32,000 bases of DNA from Alkanindiges sp. WGS2144 (GCF_043950625.1 NZ_CP171007.1); one strand, 5' to 3'. Positions 16,172 to 31,736 are shown, counted from the first letter of the stretch. The notes: generated from the sequence alone by a model not told the origin. Numbers and translations are program-made.

Positions 16172-17437
16172 ATGCAAACACCTTCATTCTCCCGTCATAT
16201 CCTTGCTATAGCAATTTTTGCTGGCGTAATAGGCTTGAGTGCCTGTGGTAGTGATTCCTCTGATGATTAGAGTTATCAGACCGAACGTACATATATTAGT
16301 GAAACCCCTTATGCGCACAACAAGGGCGAGAATAAAATTAATCATGCCAAAAGCATTGAGGTGATGAGCTACAACATGCCGGGTGTACAGGGCAAAACTG
16401 TTAAAGCCACTGCACTGGTAATGACACCAAAAGGTGAGATGCCTAAGGATGGCTGGCGCATGGTGGTTTGGGCGCATGGCACAGTAGGGGTAGGTGATGC
16501 TTGTGCCCCTAGCAACAATGGCTTTAGCAATAATCGTTTCTCTGCCATGGCAGATCAGTTGCTAGCTGAAGGTTATATGATTGTAGCTCCTGATTATGAG
16601 GGTTTAGGTACACCTGGTATCCACCCTTACTTGAATCTTGGCAGCGAAGCTCAGTCGGCTATTTATGCAGTTAAGGCAGTTAAAGATCACTATAAAAATA
16701 ATATTCAGGGCGACTGGATGTCTGTGGGACAGTCGCAGGGCGGACATGCGGTACTGGGTATTGCCGAGTATGCTACCAATGATAGCCACTATAAGGGCAC
16801 AGTTGCTGGCGCACCTGCTTCCAGCTTAGGGTACATTATTATGGACGTTGCGCCACAAGCGCTGGCTCAGGTGCTTCAGGGCGAAGCAGCCGGTAAACTG
16901 CCTGTGGGAACTGCGAGGGAAGCCTATGCCGAGCTACTGGCCTACGCCGCTTATACAGCGGTAGGTATCAAAGCCTATGAGCCCAGATTTGAATATAAAA
17001 AATTATTTTCTGAGCGGGCAGGGGCAGTTGCTACAAATGCTGAGGGCACCAATGGTGAGAATGGGGTTTGTCTGCCAGAGTTGCATGACCAGTTTGCTAC
17101 GGATATTCAGGATTATCTGGATAACAATCCGGGCAAGACAGTCATAGATTATCCAGGACTGGATCAGGCCGAATTTGCCAGAAATACAACACTGTCAGAG
17201 TTCCTGAAAAATACCCAGCCAGCGACTAAAAAATTGAATACACCCACCCTGATTATTCAGGGACAGGCGGATATGGCAGTACCTTATCAAGTCACCCAGC
17301 AGCTACAGCTGAACCTGAAAAATATGGGGACAGATGTGAAGTTTGAACTGGTCGAAGGTGCATCTCATACCGCCGCCATTGTTCAAAAACGTCCAGAACT
17401 GGTGGCCTTTATCAAACAACACATGCCAGCCAAGTAA
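16172..17437 (+). pseudogene. Lipoprotein alpha/beta-hydrolase (secretory-lipase/esterase-like) interrupted by an in-frame TAG at 16268..16270
   Basis: ATG at 16172 with SD AAGGAAG encodes MQTPSFSRHILAIAIFAGVIGLSACGSDSSDD, a lipobox L-S-A-C signal. A TAG follows. The same frame then continues SYQTERTY... into the 358 aa ORF listed at 16361..17437. That ORF has the nucleophile elbow GQSQGG, the acid QGQADMAVP and the His in GASHTAA. The internal ATG at 16361 has no usable SD spacing and no signal peptide. Confidence 0.7.
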
Positions 17438-19634: not shown

Positions 19635-22214
19635 ATGCGTTTTGAGAAGTTTACAGATCGATTACAACAAGCTTTATCCAATGCCCAGTCGCTAGCTGCC
19701 GGTCGTGACCATACCGGTATTGAGCCTTTTCATATTCTGGTCACTTTGCTGGAAGAATCATCTAACCTTAGTTTATTGCAACAGGCAGGGGCAAATATGC
19801 CCGCGCTGCAAAACAAACTCCAGCAAGCCCTGGAAGATGCTCCAAAGTTGGCTAGCCCTACAGGTGATATTAACCTGACTCCGGAAGCGGTTCGTATTTT
19901 GAATCTGGCTGATAGCTATGCCCAAAAAGCGGGTGATGAATATATTGCCAGTGAGTGGGTGTTGCAAGCCTTAAGCGAGCAGGGGACGACTAAAAAAATC
20001 ATTGAAGCCGCAGGAGCAGACAGTAAAAAACTGCGTGCCGTCATTGAACAAATTCGAGGAAATGAAAAAGTGACCAGCAATACCCATGAAGACCAGCGCG
20101 AAGCATTAAGTAAATATACTATTGATTTAACCGAGCGCGCATTAAGTGGCAAACTTGATCCGGTGATTGGCCGCGATGACGAAATCCGCCGTACTGTTCA
20201 GGTGCTGGCACGCCGTACTAAAAACAACCCGGTTTTAATTGGTGAACCGGGTGTGGGTAAAACGGCCATTGTGGAAGGGCTGGCGCAGCGTATTGTCAAT
20301 GGTGAAGTACCTGAAGGCCTGAAAAACAAAAAAGTATTGTCTTTAGATTTAGGCGCATTGATTGCAGGTGCTAAATTCCGTGGTGAGTTTGAAGAGCGCC
20401 TAAAAGCAGTGCTTAATGATCTGGCCAAACAGGAAGGTCAGGTGATTTTGTTTATTGATGAATTGCACACCATGGTAGGAGCAGGCAAAGCTGATGGCGC
20501 AATGGATGCTGGCAATATGCTCAAGCCTGCCCTGGCGCGTGGTGAGTTGCATTGTGTAGGCGCCACCACACTGGACGAGTACCGCCAGTATATTGAAAAA
20601 GATGCAGCGCTGGAGCGTCGCTTCCAGAAAGTGCTGGTCGATGAACCATCTGTGGCCGATACCATTGCAATTTTGCGTGGCCTAAAAGAGCGCTATCAAT
20701 TACACCATAATGTGGAAATTGAAGACTCGGCGATTATTGCCGCAGCCAAAATGTCACATCGTTATGTGACTGACCGTAAGCTGCCGGATAAAGCCATTGA
20801 TTTAATTGACGAGGCAGCCAGTCGCTTGCGCATGGAAATGGACAGTAAACCTGAAGCACTGGATCGCATTGACCGCCGCCTGATTCAGCTCAAAATGGAA
20901 TATGAGGCCATTAAACATGATGAGCAGGCTGTAGCCCAGCAAAAACAATTGACCAGCCAGATAGAGCAGCTGGAAAAAGAATTGGCTGATATGACAGAAG
21001 TCTGGCAGTCTGAAAAAGCCCTGATGCAGGGTGCGCAAAACTTCCGTGAAGAACTGGATAAAGCCAAAATTGCCTATGCCAAGGCTGAGCGTGATAGCGA
21101 TATTGCCGAAATGTCACGGCTAAAATATAGCGTGATTCCCGAGCTGGAAAAGAAAATCGCCAGCGCGGAAAAGGCTGAGGATCAGGAGCAGGGCAAGTTC
21201 AAGCTGCTAAGAACCAAAGTGACCGATAATGAAATTGCTGAAGTGGTCAGTGCTGCAACCGGAATTCCTGTGGCTAAAATGATGCAGGGTGAACGGGAAA
21301 AACTGCTAAATATGGAGGAGTTCCTGCATAAACGTGTGGTTGGGCAGAATGAAGCCGTGGTGGCAGTATCCAATGCTGTACGACGTTCACGTGCTGGCTT
21401 GTCTGATCCAAACCGTCCAAGCGGTTCATTCCTGTTCCTTGGGCCAACCGGCGTGGGTAAAACCGAACTCACCAAAGCGCTGGCTAACTTTTTGTTCGAC
21501 AGTGATGATGCCATGATTCGTATTGATATGAGCGAATTTATGGAAAAACACAGTGTTAGCCGCTTGGTAGGTGCACCTCCGGGCTATGTAGGCTATGAAG
21601 AGGGCGGAGTATTGACTGAGGCAGTGCGCCGTAAACCCTATAGTGTGGTGCTGTTTGATGAAGTAGAAAAGGCACATCCCGATGTGTTTAATATTCTGCT
21701 GCAAGTGCTGGATGACGGACGTCTGACTGACTCACAGGGTCGTGTGGTAGATTTTAAAAACACCGTGATTGTGATGACCTCCAACCTGGGTTCGCAGGCT
21801 ATTCGTGAACTGGGCAGTGATGCAGCGGGTGATGAAGTTAAAGCAGCTGTTATGGCGGCTGTGGGTGAGCATTTCCGGCCAGAGTTTATCAACCGGATTG
21901 ATGAGGTCGTGGTTTTCCACAGTCTGGATAAGGCACAGATCCGTGGCATTGCCGAGATTCAGCTTGATCGTTTGCGTGCCCGTTTGCAGGAGCGTGAAAT
22001 AGGCCTGCAACTGAATGACTCTGCGTTTGAGGAACTGGTACAGGTTGGCTATGATCCGGTGTTTGGTGCACGGCCATTGAAACGTGCGATTCAGTCAGAA
22101 ATTGAGAACCCACTGGCACAGCATATTTTGTCAGGTGATTTCCAGCCGGGGGATCAAATTGAAGTGAAACGCGAAGGTAAGCAATTGAGCTTTGAAAAAA
22201 TCAAGCTACACTAA
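19635..22214 (+). CDS. clpB: Disaggregase chaperone ClpB
   Basis: Two AAA+ modules (GEPGVGKT and GPTGVGKT), a long coiled-coil middle domain, 859 aa, and SD AGGAGG upstream. Confidence 0.98.
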
Positions 22215-22276: not shown

Positions 22277-22641
22277 ATTCAAATAAGTGGTTTTATTTGC
22301 ATTAATTGTCATATTTTGCCAAAAAAAGAAAAATAATGACGCCTTGGCTTACTTTTTTGTAAGCCATTGCCTATTGCGTAAAAAATACGAACATGGAAAA
22401 CTCCTTGTCCTCGCTTCGCTGACATCTTGCTTTCTATAAAAATTTATTATTGATAGAAATTCAGGTGGACGAAAGCATGCTCGAGGATAATTAACGTGAT
22501 GCAAAATTATCGAACCATTGATAAAAATAGTGGCATATTGCCTGAAAATTTAAAGGCTCACCTCACCATATGCCTGTTTTTCGTTAACTATCCGACTTTA
22601 AAGCTGAGTTCAATCTAGAACTACTATAGGGATCGGTTTAT

Positions 22642-23430
22642 ATGAAATTGTTTAAGCTGGCGCAAACTGAACTAAAGGCCAAATTTCAAAAAGTAGAGAA
22701 ATTTACAGTACAGGACTTAAAAGTCATGTACAGCATTTATGAAAAATACTATGAAAATACCAGTTTCAATATTTTTCAGCAGGATTTTTATAGAAAAACA
22801 GGTGCTTTTATCATATACGATCCAGAGACCAGCCGGATCGTGGGGTTTTCTACTTTACTTAGCTGCAACATCAAAACCTCTAAGAAAACATATCATGCTT
22901 TATTCAGCGGCGATACAGTCATTGAAAAAGAATTCTGGGGCTCGCGTGCTTTACAAAGAGCCATGTATCTTTATCTGCTTGCTGAAAAATTTAGGCATCC
23001 TACCGAGCCTGTGTACTGGATGTTAATTTCAAAGGGCTTTAAAACCTATCTGTTACTGGCCAATAATTTTTTTACTTATTACCCGCATTTTGAGGGTGAG
23101 CACCAGTATTTGTCTGAGATTGTAGATAGTTACTGCCGACAGTATTTTGCAGACTATTATAATCCTGCCCATAAAATCCTGGATTTTGGCAGTGATTATC
23201 AGCCACTCAAGCAAAGTGTCGCGCCCATTACTGAGCATATGCGTGTAACCAATCCGAAAATCAAATTTTTTGAGCAGTGTAATCCGAACTGGGTGCAGGG
23301 CACTGAGTTGCCTTGTATTGGAGAAATCACCTGGCAGGATATTGCCAAATATGCACAGCGTTTTATCAGCAAACCGATCAGTCAGGGCAAGCTTGAAGCA
23401 CTGATTGTGAATGAAGCTCAGCCGGTATAA
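22642..23430 (+). CDS. Hypothetical protein, possibly a GNAT-fold-like acyltransferase (family not assignable by eye); first gene of the GH3 operon
   Basis: 262 aa. A strand-helix pattern resembling GNAT motif A is present (GDTVIEKEFWGSRALQRAMYLYLL, then YWMLISKGFKTYLLL), but without the canonical R/Q-x-x-G-x-G/A motif. Its stop lies 3 nt before the next ATG. It is visibly more AT-rich than its neighbours. Confidence 0.45.
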   Translation: MKLFKLAQTELKAKFQKVEKFTVQDLKVMYSIYEKYYENTSFNIFQQDFYRKTGAFIIYDPETSRIVGFSTLLSCNIKTSKKTYHALFSGDTVIEKEFWGSRALQRAMYLYLLAEKFRHPTEPVYWMLISKGFKTYLLLANNFFTYYPHFEGEHQYLSEIVDSYCRQYFADYYNPAHKILDFGSDYQPLKQSVAPITEHMRVTNPKIKFFEQCNPNWVQGTELPCIGEITWQDIAKYAQRFISKPISQGKLEALIVNEAQPV

Positions 23431-23433
23431 TCC

Positions 23434-25029
23434 ATGAAACTACTGACCCAACTCAGCCATCGGGCACTAATTCTGGCGTGTTATGGTGCAGATCAGCGTT
23501 TTCAGAAGCAGCGCTTAGATCTGGAGCAGGTACAACGTAAAAAGCTGGCCAAAACTTTAAAGCAGCTTTATTTACCCTATTCACGGCGGCGTATAAAAGA
23601 CTATGAAAGCTTTGCTGCCAATTTGCCATTGACTCGCTATGCTGACTGGAAGGGACGCATAGAAGATATGCGCCAAGGGGGAAAAGCTTTAAGTCGTAGT
23701 AAGCTGATTCGCTACCAGCCAACTAGTGGTTCCAGTGAACATATTAAATTTATTCCGTATTACCAGGGCTTTTTAGCTGAGCTTGATAGTGCGATTGGCC
23801 CCTGGCTTAGCAGTATGTACCGTTTGCATCCACAGCTTCAGCAAGGCTCGCATTATTGGTCTATTTCATGGTTGCCCGAAAGTCAGCGCCATCTTTTAAC
23901 AGGTGCCAACCTCAATGATGACAGCATGCTGCTGGATTGGGGTAAGCGATTGCTCAGCAAGTATACACAAGCGGTATCGTCAGAAGTGGCCTTTGCCGGT
24001 AGCGCTGATGATGCCCTGTTTGCCACCTTATGCTATCTGGTAGCAGATGCGCATTTAAGCATGTTATCCGTGTGGAGTCCTACATTTGCCTTGCAGCTTC
24101 TGGACAATATGCCGCGTTGGGGCAGCCAGATTATACAGGTTTTAAGGACGGGTAGCTGGGGTGGCCGCCAGCAGTCACTGACTCATGTTAAAGCGCCACA
24201 GTCACGTCAGCGTGCCCGCTTACTGGAATACCTGTTATCCAGGCCGCTGATGGACTGGCAGGCATTATGGCCCAGTCTGACTCTGGTGTCCTGCTGGGAT
24301 ACCGCAGGGGCAAAAGCCTGGGCAGAGCAGTTACAATTGCGATTACCTTTTGCCGCGTTTGAAGGCAAGGGCTTGTGGGCTACAGAAGGGGTGGTCAGCA
24401 TTCCATATAATGAGCTTTATCCACTAGCTTACCAGAGCCATTTTTATGAATTTGAGCATCTGGCTACAGGTATGGTCGTACCCAGTTGGCAATTAAAAGA
24501 AGGTGATGAAGTTAGCCCTATCCTGACTACAGGCAGTGGACTGCTTCGTTACTGCCTGGACGATCATCTGGTAGTCACGGGTTTCTATGGCAGTGTGCCC
24601 TGTTTTAGTTTTAAGGGGCGGCGTTTTGGCGTTGATCTGGTGGGAGAGAAACTTGATCCTGATACTGCTTTAGCTGTTTTGCAAAAAGCAGCGCAAACCA
24701 GAGATTATTGCAAGCCAGTTACTCTACTGGCGATTGATACTCAAGGGCAGACAACGCCTTATTATCTGGCAGTTTTTGAAGCTGCTCACCGTAATATGCC
24801 TTGTACCACGCTGCTGGACAATCATCTAAAACAAAATTTTCATTACGAATTAGCACGCAATCTGGGGCAGCTGGCTCCTGCTCAGGTTATTTGCGTAGAT
24901 GATGGCTGGCAGTATTACAGACAGCTTGCCATGCAAAGCGGCATGGTTGAAGGCAACATTAAGCCAGAACCCTTAAAGAAAATTTATGCAGATGTATTAG
25001 CTGGCGTCAGTGTTTCTGCGGCAGAATAA
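23434..25029 (+). CDS. GH3-family adenylate-forming acyl-acid amido synthetase homologue
   Basis: Ordered GH3/ANL motifs: TSGSSEHIKFIP (nt 23722 onward), LWPSLTLVSCWDTAG, LWATEG (nt 24376 onward), FYEFE, and GLLRYCLDDHLVVTGFYGSVPCFSFKGRR (compare plant GH3 GLYRYRLGDVVKVTGF..P.F.F..R). Length 531 aa. Confidence 0.8.
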   Translation: MKLLTQLSHRALILACYGADQRFQKQRLDLEQVQRKKLAKTLKQLYLPYSRRRIKDYESFAANLPLTRYADWKGRIEDMRQGGKALSRSKLIRYQPTSGSSEHIKFIPYYQGFLAELDSAIGPWLSSMYRLHPQLQQGSHYWSISWLPESQRHLLTGANLNDDSMLLDWGKRLLSKYTQAVSSEVAFAGSADDALFATLCYLVADAHLSMLSVWSPTFALQLLDNMPRWGSQIIQVLRTGSWGGRQQSLTHVKAPQSRQRARLLEYLLSRPLMDWQALWPSLTLVSCWDTAGAKAWAEQLQLRLPFAAFEGKGLWATEGVVSIPYNELYPLAYQSHFYEFEHLATGMVVPSWQLKEGDEVSPILTTGSGLLRYCLDDHLVVTGFYGSVPCFSFKGRRFGVDLVGEKLDPDTALAVLQKAAQTRDYCKPVTLLAIDTQGQTTPYYLAVFEAAHRNMPCTTLLDNHLKQNFHYELARNLGQLAPAQVICVDDGWQYYRQLAMQSGMVEGNIKPEPLKKIYADVLAGVSVSAAE

Positions 25030-25041
25030 AAGGATACGATC

Positions 25042-26211
25042 ATGGTTGAAACTTTATTAGATTGTACGGCCAAGACAAAGCCCATGCAGATTTTTAGAAC
25101 TAATGCGGTTCAGGGATTTCATCTCCGTCCTGCCACTGTGGCAGATGATCCACAGCTGGTTAACCTGATTGCCGAATCCATGCCTGCCAATGGTGTATTG
25201 TTATCTTTTGAGCGTTGTCCCAGCTATTTAACAGCTGCCTATACCCAGTTTGAACGCCCCTGCGTGATGGTAGCGGCGGCGGATGATCAGCCTGAAAAAA
25301 TTCTGGCAATGTATAATCTAGGCGTTCGCAATTGCTTTATCAATGGAGTGGTTAAACCCTTACGTTATGTGGGCGATTTGCGCATTAACAAAACAGCACG
25401 CGGTACCGGGTTAATCAGTCTGCTCATGAGTCATTTAAAAGAATGTTATTCACAGGATGAACTTTACCAGACCGTTATATTAAACGATAATATGGTCGCC
25501 CGCCGGGTGTTACATGAGAGTCGCCCTGAAGTGCCCCCGCATTATATGGCTGACCAGGTAGAAACCTACACCTTAACCAGTTTTAAAACCAAAAAAGACA
25601 TAAACCCTAATTTACGTGTTAGCCCCATGACATTAGGGGATATCAGTGCAGTAAATCGCTTTGTCCGCCATATGGCCGACTATTATAACTTTTTACCAGC
25701 TTATAACTTTAGAGGCTTGGCTGCTCATGAACCTTACTGGAATGGTTTAAGGGTTGATGATTTTTTTGTGATAAGGCGAGCTGGTCAGATAGTGGGTTTG
25801 TTTGGTTTATGGAATCAAAAAACTTTTAAGCAAACCCGTATTGCTGACTATAGTAAGCTGACTGGCTTAATGCGACCTGCATATAATTATTGGGCAAAGC
25901 TAAGGGGTCAGTTAAGCCTACCTCAAAAGGGTAGTGCACTAAACTATCTAATGCTGCATTCTGTATTATGCAATCCATATAATACGAGTTTATTTGAAGA
26001 TATTTTAAGAGTAGCGCATCAGAAAGCTTGTAAGCGCGGTACTGAAGCCATCTGTTTTACATTGGCAGAAAATGATCCCAGACGAGACTGCAAACAATTA
26101 TTCATTGCACAAAAAGTACAGGCAATGCATGTATTTCACTGTTTTAAGGATAACCCGCTAAAGCATTTCGATGCCAGACGAATTAGTTACCTGGAGTGTG
26201 GGCGCATTTAA
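25042..26211 (+). CDS. Tandem GNAT-like acyltransferase (N-terminal half with an acyl-CoA motif, C-terminal half degenerate)
   Basis: The N-terminal half has a GNAT motif A (YVGDLRINKTARGTGLISLLMSHL, i.e. R-x-x-G-x-G-like RGTG). A second GNAT-sized half (FFVIRRAGQIVGLFGLWNQ...) lacks it. SD AAAGGA precedes the ATG, with a 12 nt gap after the GH3 gene. Confidence 0.55.
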   Translation: MVETLLDCTAKTKPMQIFRTNAVQGFHLRPATVADDPQLVNLIAESMPANGVLLSFERCPSYLTAAYTQFERPCVMVAAADDQPEKILAMYNLGVRNCFINGVVKPLRYVGDLRINKTARGTGLISLLMSHLKECYSQDELYQTVILNDNMVARRVLHESRPEVPPHYMADQVETYTLTSFKTKKDINPNLRVSPMTLGDISAVNRFVRHMADYYNFLPAYNFRGLAAHEPYWNGLRVDDFFVIRRAGQIVGLFGLWNQKTFKQTRIADYSKLTGLMRPAYNYWAKLRGQLSLPQKGSALNYLMLHSVLCNPYNTSLFEDILRVAHQKACKRGTEAICFTLAENDPRRDCKQLFIAQKVQAMHVFHCFKDNPLKHFDARRISYLECGRI

Positions 26212-26364
26212 GTTACATGAGGACACGGACACTCATCGAAATATGATTGAACTTTGTACAACAAGTTGCTAAAGTGAAAATAAGAACCAAAAATGTGGGA
26301 AGTCAGACAAATGGAAAGGCGGCTTTTATCCCCAGTTTCCAGAGCGGGTAGAAATACCAGTAAA

Positions 26365-26952
26365 ATGAGGAAGCTATCTAAAAAATATAATACTTACAAA
26401 GTGAACGCTGTAAGTGCTGGAGTCGTTTTACTGCTGAGTTCTGCGCTCCATGCTGCTACACCACTCAATGATATGGAATTAAACGATAATTTTCTGCACA
26501 ATGAAATTGCCGTCCCACAGTTGGCACTAGAGAGGCTACAAAATCCTGCACCTATAGCGGAAGCAGAACAGCAACTTCAGGTTATTGATCAGAATGAACG
26601 CATCAATAATGTTTTTGCTGATCTGGTTAAGGCAAGTGGCATTTCAAATGTACACCTCTCACTAGACAAAAAAGACCGTGAAGTCAACTATACGACCAAT
26701 AATCCTTTATTTGGCCTTGAGATTTTAAACCAGATTGCAATGGGTGACTTTGGTTCAGAACCTTTTAGTTTTCGCTGGCATGGCAACTATCACCAGATTT
26801 TTGACTTAAGCCAGATCAGTGGCATCTATTTTGATCACTCAACCGGTAGTTATGAAATTGAAAATGTGAGAGGCAAGGTAGAGTTTGAGGTTTCCAGCTA
26901 TGAAGGCAATGAGGCAGGCAGAAAATTCCGCCGTGAAATACATGTGTTCTAA
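26365..26952 (+). CDS. Hypothetical secreted protein
   Basis: The Sec-type signal MRKLSKKYNTYKVNAVSAGVVLLLSSALHA/AT only makes sense from the ATG at 26365. The ORF-track start at 26293 would add 24 hydrophilic residues in front of it. I recognise no family. Followed by the terminator at 26970..26996. Confidence 0.55.
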   Translation: MRKLSKKYNTYKVNAVSAGVVLLLSSALHAATPLNDMELNDNFLHNEIAVPQLALERLQNPAPIAEAEQQLQVIDQNERINNVFADLVKASGISNVHLSLDKKDREVNYTTNNPLFGLEILNQIAMGDFGSEPFSFRWHGNYHQIFDLSQISGIYFDHSTGSYEIENVRGKVEFEVSSYEGNEAGRKFRREIHVF

Positions 26953-26969
26953 TGGTATGGTTTAAGCCA

Positions 26970-26996
26970 AAGCCCAGTATTTACCTGGGTTTTTTT
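26970..26996 (+). terminator. Rho-independent terminator (may also serve convergent rlmL)
   Basis: Stem (AAG)CCCAG / CTGGG(TTT) with loop TATTTAC, followed by a T-run. It lies between convergent genes. Confidence 0.65.
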
Positions 26997-29488: not shown

Positions 29489-30499
29489 ATGCACCTTGCT
29501 GCCTTGCACACCTTGAGCCAGATTCAACTTAACCAGTATGGCAACCTGCGTCATTTTCTAAGTATTGAGGGCTTATCGCAACAACACCTCATTAATATTC
29601 TGGAAACTGCCGAAATCTTTTTGGGCGAAAATGGGCAGATTATTAATCGTCCTTTGCTTGATGGCCGTACGGTCATGAACCTGTTTTTTGAGCCATCAAC
29701 CCGCACGCGTACCACCTTTGAAGTAGCGGCCAAGCGCTTGTCAGCGAATGTGTTAAACATTGACATGCAGCAGTCCAGTACCAAAAAAGGCGAAACCCTG
29801 CGCGATACGCTATGGAATTTAGAGGCCATGGCTGCTGATATTTTTGTGATCCGGCATTCGGCTTCGGGTGCGGCACACTTTATGGCTCAAACAGTGTGCC
29901 CTAATGTAGCAATTATTAATGGTGGGGATGGGCGGCACTCGCACCCTACGCAGGGTATGCTGGATATGCTGACCATTCGTCGCCATGCTGCCAAGCCATT
30001 TTCTGAACTAACGGTTGCTATTATTGGTGATATCAAGCATTCGCGAGTGGCGCGTTCTGATATCGAGGCACTGCAAACTTTAGGTGCAAAAGAAATTCGG
30101 GTAATAGGCCCCAAAACCTTGCTGCCTACTGGCATTGAAGAGTTTGGCGTAAAAGTGTTTGAGAACATGGATAAGGGTGTAGAAGACTGTGACGTGCTGA
30201 TCGCCCTCCGAATTCAAAATGAGCGAATTGGTTCGCCCTTGCTGGCTTCCAGTGAGGAGTTTTACAAGTTATACGGACTGACGGAGGCGCGGGTACAGCG
30301 TGCAGCGCCCAATGCGCTGGTCATGCATCCGGGACCCATGAACCGTGGGGTGGAAATAGCTTCTAGCGTGGCTGATGGCCCGCAATCTTTGATCTTAAAG
30401 CAGGTCAATTATGGTATTGCCGTGCGTATGGCCGTGTTGGCATTGAGTATGCAGGGGCAACTTGAGGCAAAAGGCTTACTCAATCAGCAGGCGGTATAA
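29489..30499 (+). CDS. pyrB: Aspartate carbamoyltransferase catalytic chain
   Basis: Contains [23 protein letters not shown] and HPGPMNRG. Length 336 aa. Confidence 0.96.
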
Positions 30500-30509
30500 G
30501 GGGCGTAAT

Positions 30510-31736
30510 ATGAGTATTATTGAAATTAAAAATGTCCGTGTGCTTGACCCGGTAAGCCAGACTGATGAAGTTAAAACTGTATTGATTCAGGATGGAAAAA
30601 TCATAGAGACGGGTGCGGCAACCACCAGTATTGACGGTCAGGGCAAATGGTTAATGCCAGCCCTGGTGGATTTGTGTGCACGCTTGCGTGAGCCTGGTCA
30701 GCAGCAGCATGGCACTTTAAAAAGTGAGGGACAGGCAGCACGGGCAGCCGGTTTTTTGCATGTGGTACTGCCACCAGATACCAAGCCAGTTCAGGATAAC
30801 GGTGCCTTATTAAAAGGTTTGCGTGAAAAAGCTTTTCATGATGGTGGAATTTATCTACATCCGATTGGCGCACAAACCAAAGGACTTGAAGGCAGGCAGC
30901 CTTCCAATATGGCCGGTCTTAAGCAGGGTGGCTGTATTGCAGTGGGTAATGCCCGTGCATCGTTTGTCGATGATGATGTCTTGCTGCGTACGCTGGAATA
31001 TGCAGCAAGCCTGGACTTAAAAGTATTTTTTTATCCTGAAGAAGCCACCATTGCCAAAGATGGCTATGTACATGATGGTTTTACTGCGTCGCGTCAGGGT
31101 TTAACCGGTATTCCTGCCATTGCAGAAACAGTGGCGCTGGCCAAGCAATTGCTGATGATTGAAGCCACTGGCGTACAGGCACATTTTGGTTTGTTGTCCT
31201 GTGGTGCATCGGTTGAGTTAATCAGGGCAGCCAAGGTCAAAGGTTTGAAGGTGACTGCTGATGTTGCCATGCATCAGTTGCATTTAACTGATCAAACCAT
31301 TGATGGCTTTAATTCCTTGGCGCATGTACGTCCGCCACTGCGTAGTGAGTCTGATTGCGAATTGCTGCGGCAAGGTATTGCCAGTGGAGTAATTGATGCG
31401 ATTTGCTCACACCATGAGCCATTATCAGCTTCAGCCAAACTGGCACCTTTTGCAGAAACCGAGGCGGGTATTTCGGGCTTTGATACGTTTATGGCATTGG
31501 GTACAGCCCTTGTGCATCAGAGCTTGCTTAGTCCTTTACAGCTAGCTAGTTGCATTAGTCAGAAGCCTGCTTATATTGCAGGTATTGAAACTCAGTGGCA
31601 GGAGACTGGTGGCTGGGTACTGGTCGATCCTGAGCAGGAGTGGGTGGTCAGTAATGATCAGTTCCGCTCGCAGGGCAGAAATACACCGTTTCTGGGTGCA
31701 GCAGTAAAAGGCCGTACGCTGGAATTGTTTATTTAA
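30510..31736 (+). CDS. pyrC': Dihydroorotase-like non-catalytic ATCase subunit (PyrC')
   Basis: Amidohydrolase/DHOase fold with degenerate metal ligands: DLCARLREPG in place of D-x-H-x-H-LREPG, and SHHEP in place of DHAPH. The start at 30510 has SD AAGGGG 7 nt upstream. The ORF-track start at 30462 would overlap pyrB by 38 nt. Confidence 0.85.
   Translation: MSIIEIKNVRVLDPVSQTDEVKTVLIQDGKIIETGAATTSIDGQGKWLMPALVDLCARLREPGQQQHGTLKSEGQAARAAGFLHVVLPPDTKPVQDNGALLKGLREKAFHDGGIYLHPIGAQTKGLEGRQPSNMAGLKQGGCIAVGNARASFVDDDVLLRTLEYAASLDLKVFFYPEEATIAKDGYVHDGFTASRQGLTGIPAIAETVALAKQLLMIEATGVQAHFGLLSCGASVELIRAAKVKGLKVTADVAMHQLHLTDQTIDGFNSLAHVRPPLRSESDCELLRQGIASGVIDAICSHHEPLSASAKLAPFAETEAGISGFDTFMALGTALVHQSLLSPLQLASCISQKPAYIAGIETQWQETGGWVLVDPEQEWVVSNDQFRSQGRNTPFLGAAVKGRTLELFI

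Follow-up and report, generated by a model that had tools for sequence, protein, structure and literature searches.

A conserved gene trio of Alkanindiges and its relatives, combining a GH3-family amide synthetase with two GNAT-fold proteins, as the candidate core of an amide-linked lipid pathway

The only characterised bacterial enzyme of the GH3 family, OlsH of Singulisphaera acidiphila, was described in 2025; it uses ATP to join a free fatty acid to ornithine, giving N-acyl-ornithine without coenzyme A (CoA) or acyl carrier protein (ACP), and an alpha/beta-hydrolase, OlsI, then O-acylates the product (PMC12493201). The published OlsH phylogeny does not contain the clade of Moraxellaceae, Alcanivorax and Marinobacter, and GNAT partners are not described (PMC12493201). 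We analysed a stretch of 32,000 nt from Alkanindiges sp. WGS2144 (Moraxellaceae; GCF_043950625.1, NZ_CP171007.1), called the window in what follows, in which a GH3 gene lies between two genes, ORF1 and ORF3, whose products are predicted to adopt GNAT folds. An earlier sequence-only reading of this locus had held bacterial GH3 homologues to be essentially uncharacterised biochemically, a view overturned by the work on OlsH. It had also taken the three genes for an uncharacterised module, and in the literature library that we searched there was indeed no paper assigning the trio to a characterised pathway. We propose, with about an even chance of being right, that the trio is the minimal core of a widespread pathway to an amide-linked, fatty-acyl amphiphile (a lipoamino-acid or N-acyl-amine lipid), which is tailored and exported in most lineages. 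What is new is that the predicted GH3-dependent amide synthesis has two putative acyltransferase families, neither with a curated model, as its obligate partners. The three genes are as follows.

22642-23430, + strand: ORF1, 262 aa, a protein of modelled GNAT fold from a family without a Pfam model, constant neighbour of GH3

23434-25029, + strand: GH3, 531 aa, a predicted GH3-family adenylating amide synthetase

25042-26211, + strand: ORF3, 389 aa, a predicted tandem-GNAT, N-myristoyltransferase-like acyltransferase

All three proteins are 100% identical to entries of Alkanindiges sp. WGS2144, and the genes share the + strand with intergenic gaps of 3 nt (ORF1 to GH3) and 12 nt (GH3 to ORF3), in exact agreement with what had first been noted. 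Across loci, a 4-nt overlap is the most frequent junction at both gene boundaries, and ORF1, GH3 and ORF3 constitute one translationally coupled operon. With the ORF1 family as probe, 80 reference-genome loci were found in Alkanindiges, Acinetobacter, Agitococcus, Fluviicoccus, Alcanivoracaceae and Marinobacter; 76 of these hold the three genes in order, and the remaining 4 are broken by contig ends. A second set of 80 loci (GC content 0.28-0.74) was obtained from metagenomes in a scan led by a distant marine ORF1 member, and among the 34 long loci of this distant clade, i.e., those flanked by 3.5 kb or more on each side, 32 carry the full trio and 2 carry ORF1 and GH3. Remote members that were sampled singly all adjoin GH3, and an ORF3 homologue is also adjacent wherever the sequence suffices (L003, L086, L087/L088). 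A 387-aa gene after GH3 in L004 was considered as a further ORF3 homologue and rejected, being radical-SAM-like instead. The trio cluster is also carried by a mobilizable IncFIB/IncFII plasmid of Citrobacter portucalensis (NZ_CP134684.1; L169, 6145-15329), where the order is an ORF1-like gene, GH3, two radical-SAM genes, an ORF3-like 'N-acetyltransferase', two more radical-SAM genes and PAP2; the module is therefore horizontally mobile in Enterobacteriaceae. The co-occurrence outside the source genome on which the sequence-only reading depended is thus seen in genomes, metagenomes and a plasmid, and this synteny establishes the trio as a functional unit with obligate three-way linkage and not a chance adjacency. 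The mere 26 matches returned for ORF3 by a word-indexed search are a sensitivity artefact, as orthologues at about 35% identity exist in A. baumannii (35%, 2e-88) and Fluviicoccus (36%, 2e-82).

Judged by its domains and motifs, the middle protein is predicted to be a complete GH3 enzyme. All three Pfam domains of the family are present, namely PF03321 (6.1e-32), PF23571 (GH3_M, 2.4e-14) and PF23572 (GH3_C, 1.2e-7), with scores of 111.5, 53.6 and 32.8 bits against a curated cut-off of 23.6 for each. The nucleotide motifs of the family, SSGTSxGxxK, YxSSE and GLYRYRxGD, have counterparts in the correct order, as had been recognised before the profile search, and every motif quoted at that time is present in the translation: motif I as TSGSSEHIKFIP at residues 97-108 (core TSGSSEHIK, 97-105), LWPSL..TAG at 279-293, motif II as LWATEG at 314-319, and motif III as GLLRYCLDDHLVVTGF..PCFSFKGRR at 369-397 (core GLLRYCLDD, 369-377). 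Motifs I and III were aligned by profile to AtGH3.15 (TSGSS..K against SSGTSGG.K and GLLRYxLDD against GLYRYRVGD), while LWATEG was placed as motif II by order and conservation only. Residues S98, G99, S100, K105, T317, E318, R372, Y373 and D377 are invariant in an alignment of 19 sequences of the clade. The A. baumannii orthologue is 57% identical, and its cluster holds 3,539 member sequences.

Several features are shared with OlsH-OlsI: a GH3-like enzyme of ~530 aa, the same three nucleotide motifs (TSGSSEHIK, LWATEG and GLLRYCLDD corresponding to TSGTTQGATK, YPCSE and GMWSHLIGD of OlsH), an operonic setting with acyltransferase(s) and a lipid context. By analogy, the GH3 enzyme of the trio may likewise form amides from ATP free of both carrier and CoA, and the OlsH precedent makes a lipid product the leading prediction. 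The two systems differ in their partners, which in the trio are two GNAT-fold proteins from families without a Pfam model rather than OlsI, and there is no OlsG methyltransferase. Instead of lying in an operon with an OlsI-type alpha/beta-hydrolase, GH3 has GNAT-fold neighbours in all loci, and the sole alpha/beta-hydrolase gene of the window (16361-17437) is parted from the trio by glyA, rnk and clpB. The ornithine lipids and lysine lipids of A. baumannii depend on OlsB/OlsA, encoded at other loci (PMC11419095), and the product of the trio in this species is therefore not simply an ornithine lipid. Given this OlsBA route and the lack of an OlsI-like partner, ornithine-lipid synthesis is disfavoured as the function of the trio.

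Plant GH3 enzymes (JAR1, GH3.5/6/12/15) share with the middle protein the Pfam family, the three-domain layout, the motifs and the expected two-step adenylation and amidation. The clade profile matches plant GH3 crystal structures with values up to 1.8e-20, including amido synthetases for indole-3-acetic acid, benzoate and jasmonic acid, although identity is very low and single-sequence matches extend over only ~50-70 residues. This precedent and these profile matches, together with Rieske/VanA_C, AurF-like and P450 neighbours of a kind common in aromatic metabolism, would also accommodate a function in which GH3 conjugates a non-lipid carboxylate (aromatic or small, endogenous or xenobiotic, i.e., auxin-, benzoate- or bile-acid-like) to an amino acid, the GNAT proteins N-acetylate the conjugate or its precursor, and pumps remove it, either as phase II/III detoxification or as a small signal. 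Plant GH3 enzymes act alone on hormones, whereas the GH3 enzyme of the trio is tied to two acyltransferases and often to exporters. We consider conjugation of a non-lipid carboxylate unlikely, as detoxification leaves the two obligate partners across hundreds of lineages unexplained. Furthermore, OlsH uses fatty acids, and ORF3 best fits a long-chain acyltransferase architecture.

The structural model points to ORF3 being a tandem GNAT with pseudo-twofold architecture. Its N-lobe gives a Pfam Acetyltransf_1 match at residues 57-156 (22.6 bits, just above the cut-off of 20.7), within which the GNAT acyl-CoA motif RINKTARGTG, correctly assigned to the first half of the protein from the beginning, occupies residues 114-123 and supplies an RGxG acyl-CoA loop. 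The AlphaFold2 (AF2) model (pLDDT 90.1) contains two GNAT lobes and in Foldseek aligns over its full length with N-myristoyltransferases (NMTs; 2.6e-13, TM 0.52-0.60, about 0.55) and with the two-domain glucosamine N-acetyltransferase 5kf1; it is from these full-length alignments that the tandem assignment follows. A second, degenerate half of GNAT size had been suspected in the protein. The two-lobe model confirms the GNAT lobe but not the degeneracy, since the second lobe is in fact the better-conserved half of ORF3. The position of the C-terminus is fixed in 78/78 gammaproteobacterial orthologues, which end in [E/D]-x-[G/A]-[R/K]-[I/L]; two distant homologues stop four residues past the same Glu, and the C-terminus is confidently modelled. 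In NMTs the C-terminal carboxylate serves as the catalytic base, and the fixed C-terminus of ORF3 therefore provides a lead for NMT-like catalysis.

Likeness to eukaryotic NMTs comprises the tandem-GNAT arrangement along the entire chain, an N-lobe that carries the acyl-CoA loop, and a C-terminus of strictly conserved position. On the other hand, ORF3 is bacterial and only ~11% identical, it matches none of the NMT Pfam models, a profile search of PDB sequences retrieved no NMT, and its acceptor is almost certainly not the N-terminal glycine of a protein; from its sequence, ORF3 appears NMT-like in its working at most and not a member of the NMT family. Single-sequence and profile searches of PDB sequences with ORF3 gave nothing informative. 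A further parallel exists in mycothiol synthesis, in which the ATP-dependent ligase MshC is followed by the tandem-GNAT N-acyltransferase MshD. There, too, a ligase forms an amide and a two-domain GNAT caps a free amine, and a sugar N-acetyltransferase of the 5kf1 type is among the best folds for ORF3. However, MshC is a ligase resembling class I aminoacyl-tRNA synthetases and not a GH3 enzyme, the trio loci are without inositol or glucosamine genes, and the ORF3 profile search of solved-structure sequences found no MshD-like chain.

Tandem-GNAT architectures that act on envelope precursors are also known, namely FemX and the C-terminal domain of MprF. The trio could in principle modify an envelope macromolecule by placing an acyl or aminoacyl group on a lipid A/lipooligosaccharide, peptidoglycan or lipoprotein precursor at the cytoplasmic side, with the pumps serving envelope homeostasis. 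This is in our view distinctly improbable: the best folds for ORF3 are NMT and sugar N-acetyltransferase, with neither FemX nor MprF among the top 50 matches, ORF1, GH3 and ORF3 are predicted to be soluble and basic proteins without membrane segments, and the copy in Citrobacter is plasmid-borne. Observations in A. baumannii that favour envelope modification are given below.

ORF1 belongs to a family without a curated model. Searches against Pfam, NCBIfam (E <= 1) and PDB sequences gave no match, a PDB profile search was also uninformative, and of 40 diverse family members only 2 reach Acetyltransf_9, with a best value of 0.001. The AF2 model (pLDDT 86.7) nevertheless indicates that the first ~145 residues adopt a GNAT fold, which agrees with the weak GNAT-like pattern and lack of a family noted at the outset. 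Over this part Foldseek matches GNAT structures (AAC(2')-Ia, 5.9e-5), with 39 PDB matches at E <= 1e-3, and all of the 50 top-ranked matches listed are GNAT or GNAT-domain proteins aligned over ~125-150 residues. Both flanking proteins thus give GNAT-type folds as models, consistent with the acyltransferase-like character that had been assumed for them. At the position of the acyl-CoA loop, ORF1 has a conserved FSGDT...YWG(S/T)RAL with invariant D91 and G100, which differs from the canonical R/Q-x-x-G-x-G/A, and the C-terminal ~110 residues contain a conserved NPxW..GxELxC block. A derivation of ORF1 as a copy of one ORF3 lobe was rejected beyond the shared fold (hhalign probability 0.6%). The ORF1 family comprises 1,337 clusters at 50% identity, and a member adjoins GH3 in every locus with enough sequence. 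In relatives, ORF1 is fused to a fatty acid (FA) desaturase, to PAP2 and FA desaturase, to an MMPL transporter or to an FG-GAP membrane protein; the fusions to membrane FA desaturase, PAP2 and MMPL argue against conjugation of a non-lipid carboxylate.

The window encodes no pump, regulator or carrier protein. The absence of a regulator or transporter from the trio, as claimed in the sequence-only reading, holds for the window and close relatives but not for the family at large: efflux genes (MFP/RND or MFP/MFS/OEP) flank or interleave the trio in 48/66 long genome loci, and a divergent AraC regulator occurs in 31 genome loci. In the type A layout (29 loci), a divergent AraC regulator, the trio and MFP-RND genes are accompanied upstream by an AdeT-type binding protein and an acyl-CoA dehydrogenase, and Alcanivorax loci of this type have an inserted protein with weak similarity to PapA_C (26 bits against a cut-off of 30). 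The type B layout (23 loci, including A. baumannii, A. calcoaceticus and A. baylyi) reads MFP-MFS-ORF1-GH3-OEP-ORF3, and type C (17 loci, including the window) reads clpB-trio-...-rlmKL and is without a pump. The chromosome of Acinetobacter corruptisaponis (NZ_CP125669.1) carries two separate type B clusters (L036, L053). A contig labelled as a metagenome-assembled genome of Pedobacter sp. (L016) holds a Moraxellaceae-type trio with MFP-RND and an ORF1 54% identical to that of the window; its bin assignment looks doubtful.

In the distant clade, the typical cluster has on its 5' side a SARP-like regulator, an FG-GAP/RnfD-like membrane protein and a Rieske/VanA_C oxygenase, followed by the trio, and on its 3' side an FA desaturase with a P450, or an FA hydroxylase, or an AurF-like enzyme with a desaturase, as well as a MATE exporter; MATE genes were found in 19/29 metagenome loci. 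Low-GC variants contain two to four B12-radical-SAM genes, PlsC or PAP2. At least one lipid-type tailoring gene is present in 33/34 long metagenome loci, and overall the loci of this clade look like specialised-metabolite clusters. The substrates of membrane di-iron enzymes, PAP2, PlsC and MMPL are hydrophobic and lipid-like, and this is the main basis on which a lipid product is predicted. The PlsC, acyl-CoA dehydrogenase and weakly PapA_C-like neighbours are also at odds with conjugation of a non-lipid carboxylate, while the resemblance of the variable oxidative, radical-SAM and MATE neighbourhoods and their SARP-like regulators to specialised-metabolite clusters argues against envelope modification. 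Desaturase, hydroxylase and PAP2 parallel the tailoring of sphingolipids; a ceramide-like pathway was set aside, as there is no serine-palmitoyltransferase-type aminotransferase among the recurrent neighbours.

Several variants combine two to four B12-radical-SAM genes with unannotated small ORFs, and GNAT-dependent lipidation of ribosomally synthesised and post-translationally modified peptides is known from the selidamides. Under such a scheme, a small precursor peptide would be fatty-acylated by the GNAT-fold enzymes, with GH3 providing or attaching the acyl group and radical-SAM enzymes tailoring the peptide. This appears very improbable to us: the 80 genome loci, in which the upstream neighbours vary (clpB, MFS gene, AraC), show no small ORF conserved alongside the trio, no peptidase or leader-recognition genes were seen, and B12-radical-SAM enzymes also methylate lipids.

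The recurrent neighbours and the window contain no carrier protein, condensation domain or IucA/IucC synthetase, which bears out the earlier statement that the layout is unlike that of a non-ribosomal peptide synthetase (NRPS) or siderophore cluster. NRPS-independent siderophore pathways do pair ATP-dependent amide synthetases with GNAT-like N-acyltransferases, as in IucA/C with IucB, and a siderophore-like metallophore might analogously arise from a carrier-free amide synthetase and N-acyltransferases. We attach hardly any credence to this, since no N-hydroxylase, IucA/IucC, TonB-dependent receptor or Fur-type context occurs in the loci examined and there is no PF13523-type match; the reported induction of amfA, in the pump operon that holds the A. 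baumannii trio, by low iron would be in its favour (PMC10812440). Anti-phage defence was dropped, as the PADLOC anti-phage models gave no match and ORF1 reached only a chance-level score of 14 bits.

In A. baumannii the trio resides within the operon of AmfAB (A1S_1773/1772), an EmrAB-like MFS pump that exports no tested antibiotic (PMC10812440). The published deletion and cloning primers for AmfAB map exactly onto the A. baumannii locus L001: the cloning primer coincides with the beginning of the MFP gene, an internal primer falls at the MFS gene's 3' end, and the ORF1 orthologue contains two further primers, that of the 'upstream' arm and that for the external check. Not one of the AmfCD primers has a match there. 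At 372-8045 of L001 (contig JANJCI010000016.1), amfAB is followed by ORF1, GH3, a TolC-like OEP and ORF3 with overlapping stop and start codons, and the primer mapping therefore defines the operon as amfA-amfB-ORF1-GH3-tolC-like-ORF3. From the consecutive numbering of the tags, A1S_1771, 1770 and 1768 would be the orthologues of ORF1, GH3 and ORF3. In the published work amfAB counts as a two-gene operon that lacks an outer-membrane channel, and the four downstream genes are unmentioned (PMC10812440); an outer-membrane channel gene (OEP) does, however, lie two genes downstream of amfAB. A1S_1769, three genes from the MFS gene, is a 'tolC like subunit' in a listing of the Bae regulon and is up when outer-membrane lipoprotein biogenesis is impaired (PMC11784087).

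Overproduction of AmfAB causes toxicity and an outer membrane leaky to 1-N-phenylnaphthylamine (NPN), deletion lowers NPN uptake, and delayed growth at pH 4.6 is also part of the phenotype (PMC10812440). These effects on permeability and growth, and the response of A1S_1769 to impaired lipoprotein biogenesis, are the observations that speak for envelope modification. The homology arm used for the AmfAB deletion extends about 270 bp into the ORF1 orthologue, and polar effects on the trio are therefore possible. The same gene string occurs in A. baumannii and 22 other Acinetobacter loci, whereas the pump is absent from the window. Literature searches on GH3 with Acinetobacter, Alcanivorax, Marinobacter or the A1S/ABUW tags brought up no study of what the trio does; the only mentions of ABUW_1948 are a KEGG 'tryptophan metabolism' entry and its classification as deletable.

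Overall, the GH3 profile, the folds, the synteny and the literature all support the view, first taken from sequence, of one carboxylate activator combined with two acyltransferases. Based on the protein families, folds, operon structure, linkage, genomic context and the location of the trio at amfAB in A. baumannii, we infer the following substrates, order of steps and product for the proposed lipid pathway. GH3 would first adenylate a carboxylic acid with ATP and ligate it directly to an amine, requiring neither CoA nor a carrier protein. The OlsH precedent points to a free fatty acid or a 3-hydroxy fatty acid as the most likely substrate, and amino acids, diamino acids and polyamines are conceivable acceptors. 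ORF3 would then acylate a free amino group of this intermediate with a long chain taken from acyl-CoA or acyl-ACP, its conserved second lobe presumably acting as the acceptor lobe. ORF1 may carry out a further acyl transfer at the cytoplasmic membrane face, after which the chains would be desaturated, hydroxylated or methylated by lineage-specific enzymes and the product exported through a dedicated pump. Our confidence in the order of these steps is much lower than that in the product class.

A number of points weigh against this pathway. The lipid character of the product is derived from neighbours and from fusions in relatives, the window itself being without tailoring genes or a pump. Aromatic acids, the classical substrates of plant GH3 enzymes, are likewise acted on by Rieske/VanA_C, P450 and AurF-like enzymes, and the OlsB/OlsA-dependent ornithine and lysine lipids of A. 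baumannii exclude a plain ornithine lipid (PMC11419095). The fold match of ORF1 (E about 1e-4) is limited to the N-terminal half, and its CoA-binding loop departs from the usual R/QxxGxG/A, reading WGSRA. In one subgroup of ORF3 (P0250-P0255), the RGxG loop of the N-lobe is degenerate (DFRVND-FK..L) while the C-lobe and C-terminus are kept, and the NMT match, at a TM of about 0.55 and 11% identity, denotes a shared architecture and not orthology.

Beyond the trio, the locus contains three further features.

22330-22520, + strand: conserved non-coding stretch in the spacer between clpB and ORF1, with near-invariant blocks, e.g., CCTCGCTTCGCTGACATCT and AAATTCAGGTGGACGAAAGCATGCTCGAGGATAATTAACG

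26293-26952, + strand: ORF4, 219 aa, with a signal-peptide-like hydrophobic segment (residues 37-55)

26969-26993, + strand: terminator-like hairpin with a T-run, consisting of a 9-bp stem and then TTTTTTTATATCTT

Upstream of the trio, clpB (19635-22214) is followed by a hairpin with a T-run and a 427-bp AT-rich spacer. The conserved blocks of this spacer are common to four Alkanindiges-type loci and absent from other loci, including those of Acinetobacter with the same gene order. RNA folding of 22330-22520 gave z = -3.27, with none of 200 shuffled sequences folding as well. Only 3 compensatory pairs were found, i.e., almost no covariation, and Rfam gave no match for the region, so that a known RNA element is not supported; the stretch may be a 5' leader, an operator region or a small RNA. 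On the downstream side, ORF3 is followed by ORF4, the hairpin and the convergent rlmKL. There is no terminator-like site between ORF3 and ORF4, and ORF4 is probably co-transcribed with the trio, the hairpin being the probable end of the transcription unit. ORF4 has no match to Pfam or NCBIfam, and its homologues are confined to three Alkanindiges-type loci (cluster c71); it is a lineage-specific gene outside the conserved module. The wider window is of housekeeping character (ubiC, ubiA, alpha/beta-hydrolase, glyA, rnk, clpB, pyrB). Directly after pyrB, where a dihydroorotase-like gene is expected, a 424-aa ORF (30462-31736, TTG start as listed) is without a Pfam match at E <= 1e-4.

In a more far-reaching form, which we put forward tentatively and think somewhat more likely to fail than to hold, the trio would be the universal core of an unrecognised class of amide-linked lipid or lipoamino-acid surfactants; ORF1 and ORF3 would represent two new acyltransferase families, ORF3 would be NMT-like and use its C-terminal carboxylate in catalysis, and in A. 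baumannii the AmfAB-TolC-like pump would have the product as its long-sought physiological cargo, with effects on outer-membrane permeability and stress tolerance. If this is true, the product in Alcanivorax, Marinobacter, Alkanindiges and Acinetobacter might be a surface-active lipid of relevance to hydrocarbon use. Two sizeable protein families without a curated model are hereby tied to one testable chemistry, and the role of bacterial GH3 enzymes in lipid synthesis, as known from OlsH, would be extended to another gene layout that is far more widespread. Clusters in which desaturase, hydroxylase, P450, radical-SAM and MATE genes join the trio may yield new amphiphilic natural products. For A. 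baumannii, the four genes downstream of amfAB may, if the proposal is correct, explain how outer-membrane permeability is altered without antibiotic export, and polar effects on these genes may contribute to the phenotypes published for ΔamfAB. The trio thus offers a concrete hypothesis for an orphan efflux pump of a priority pathogen.

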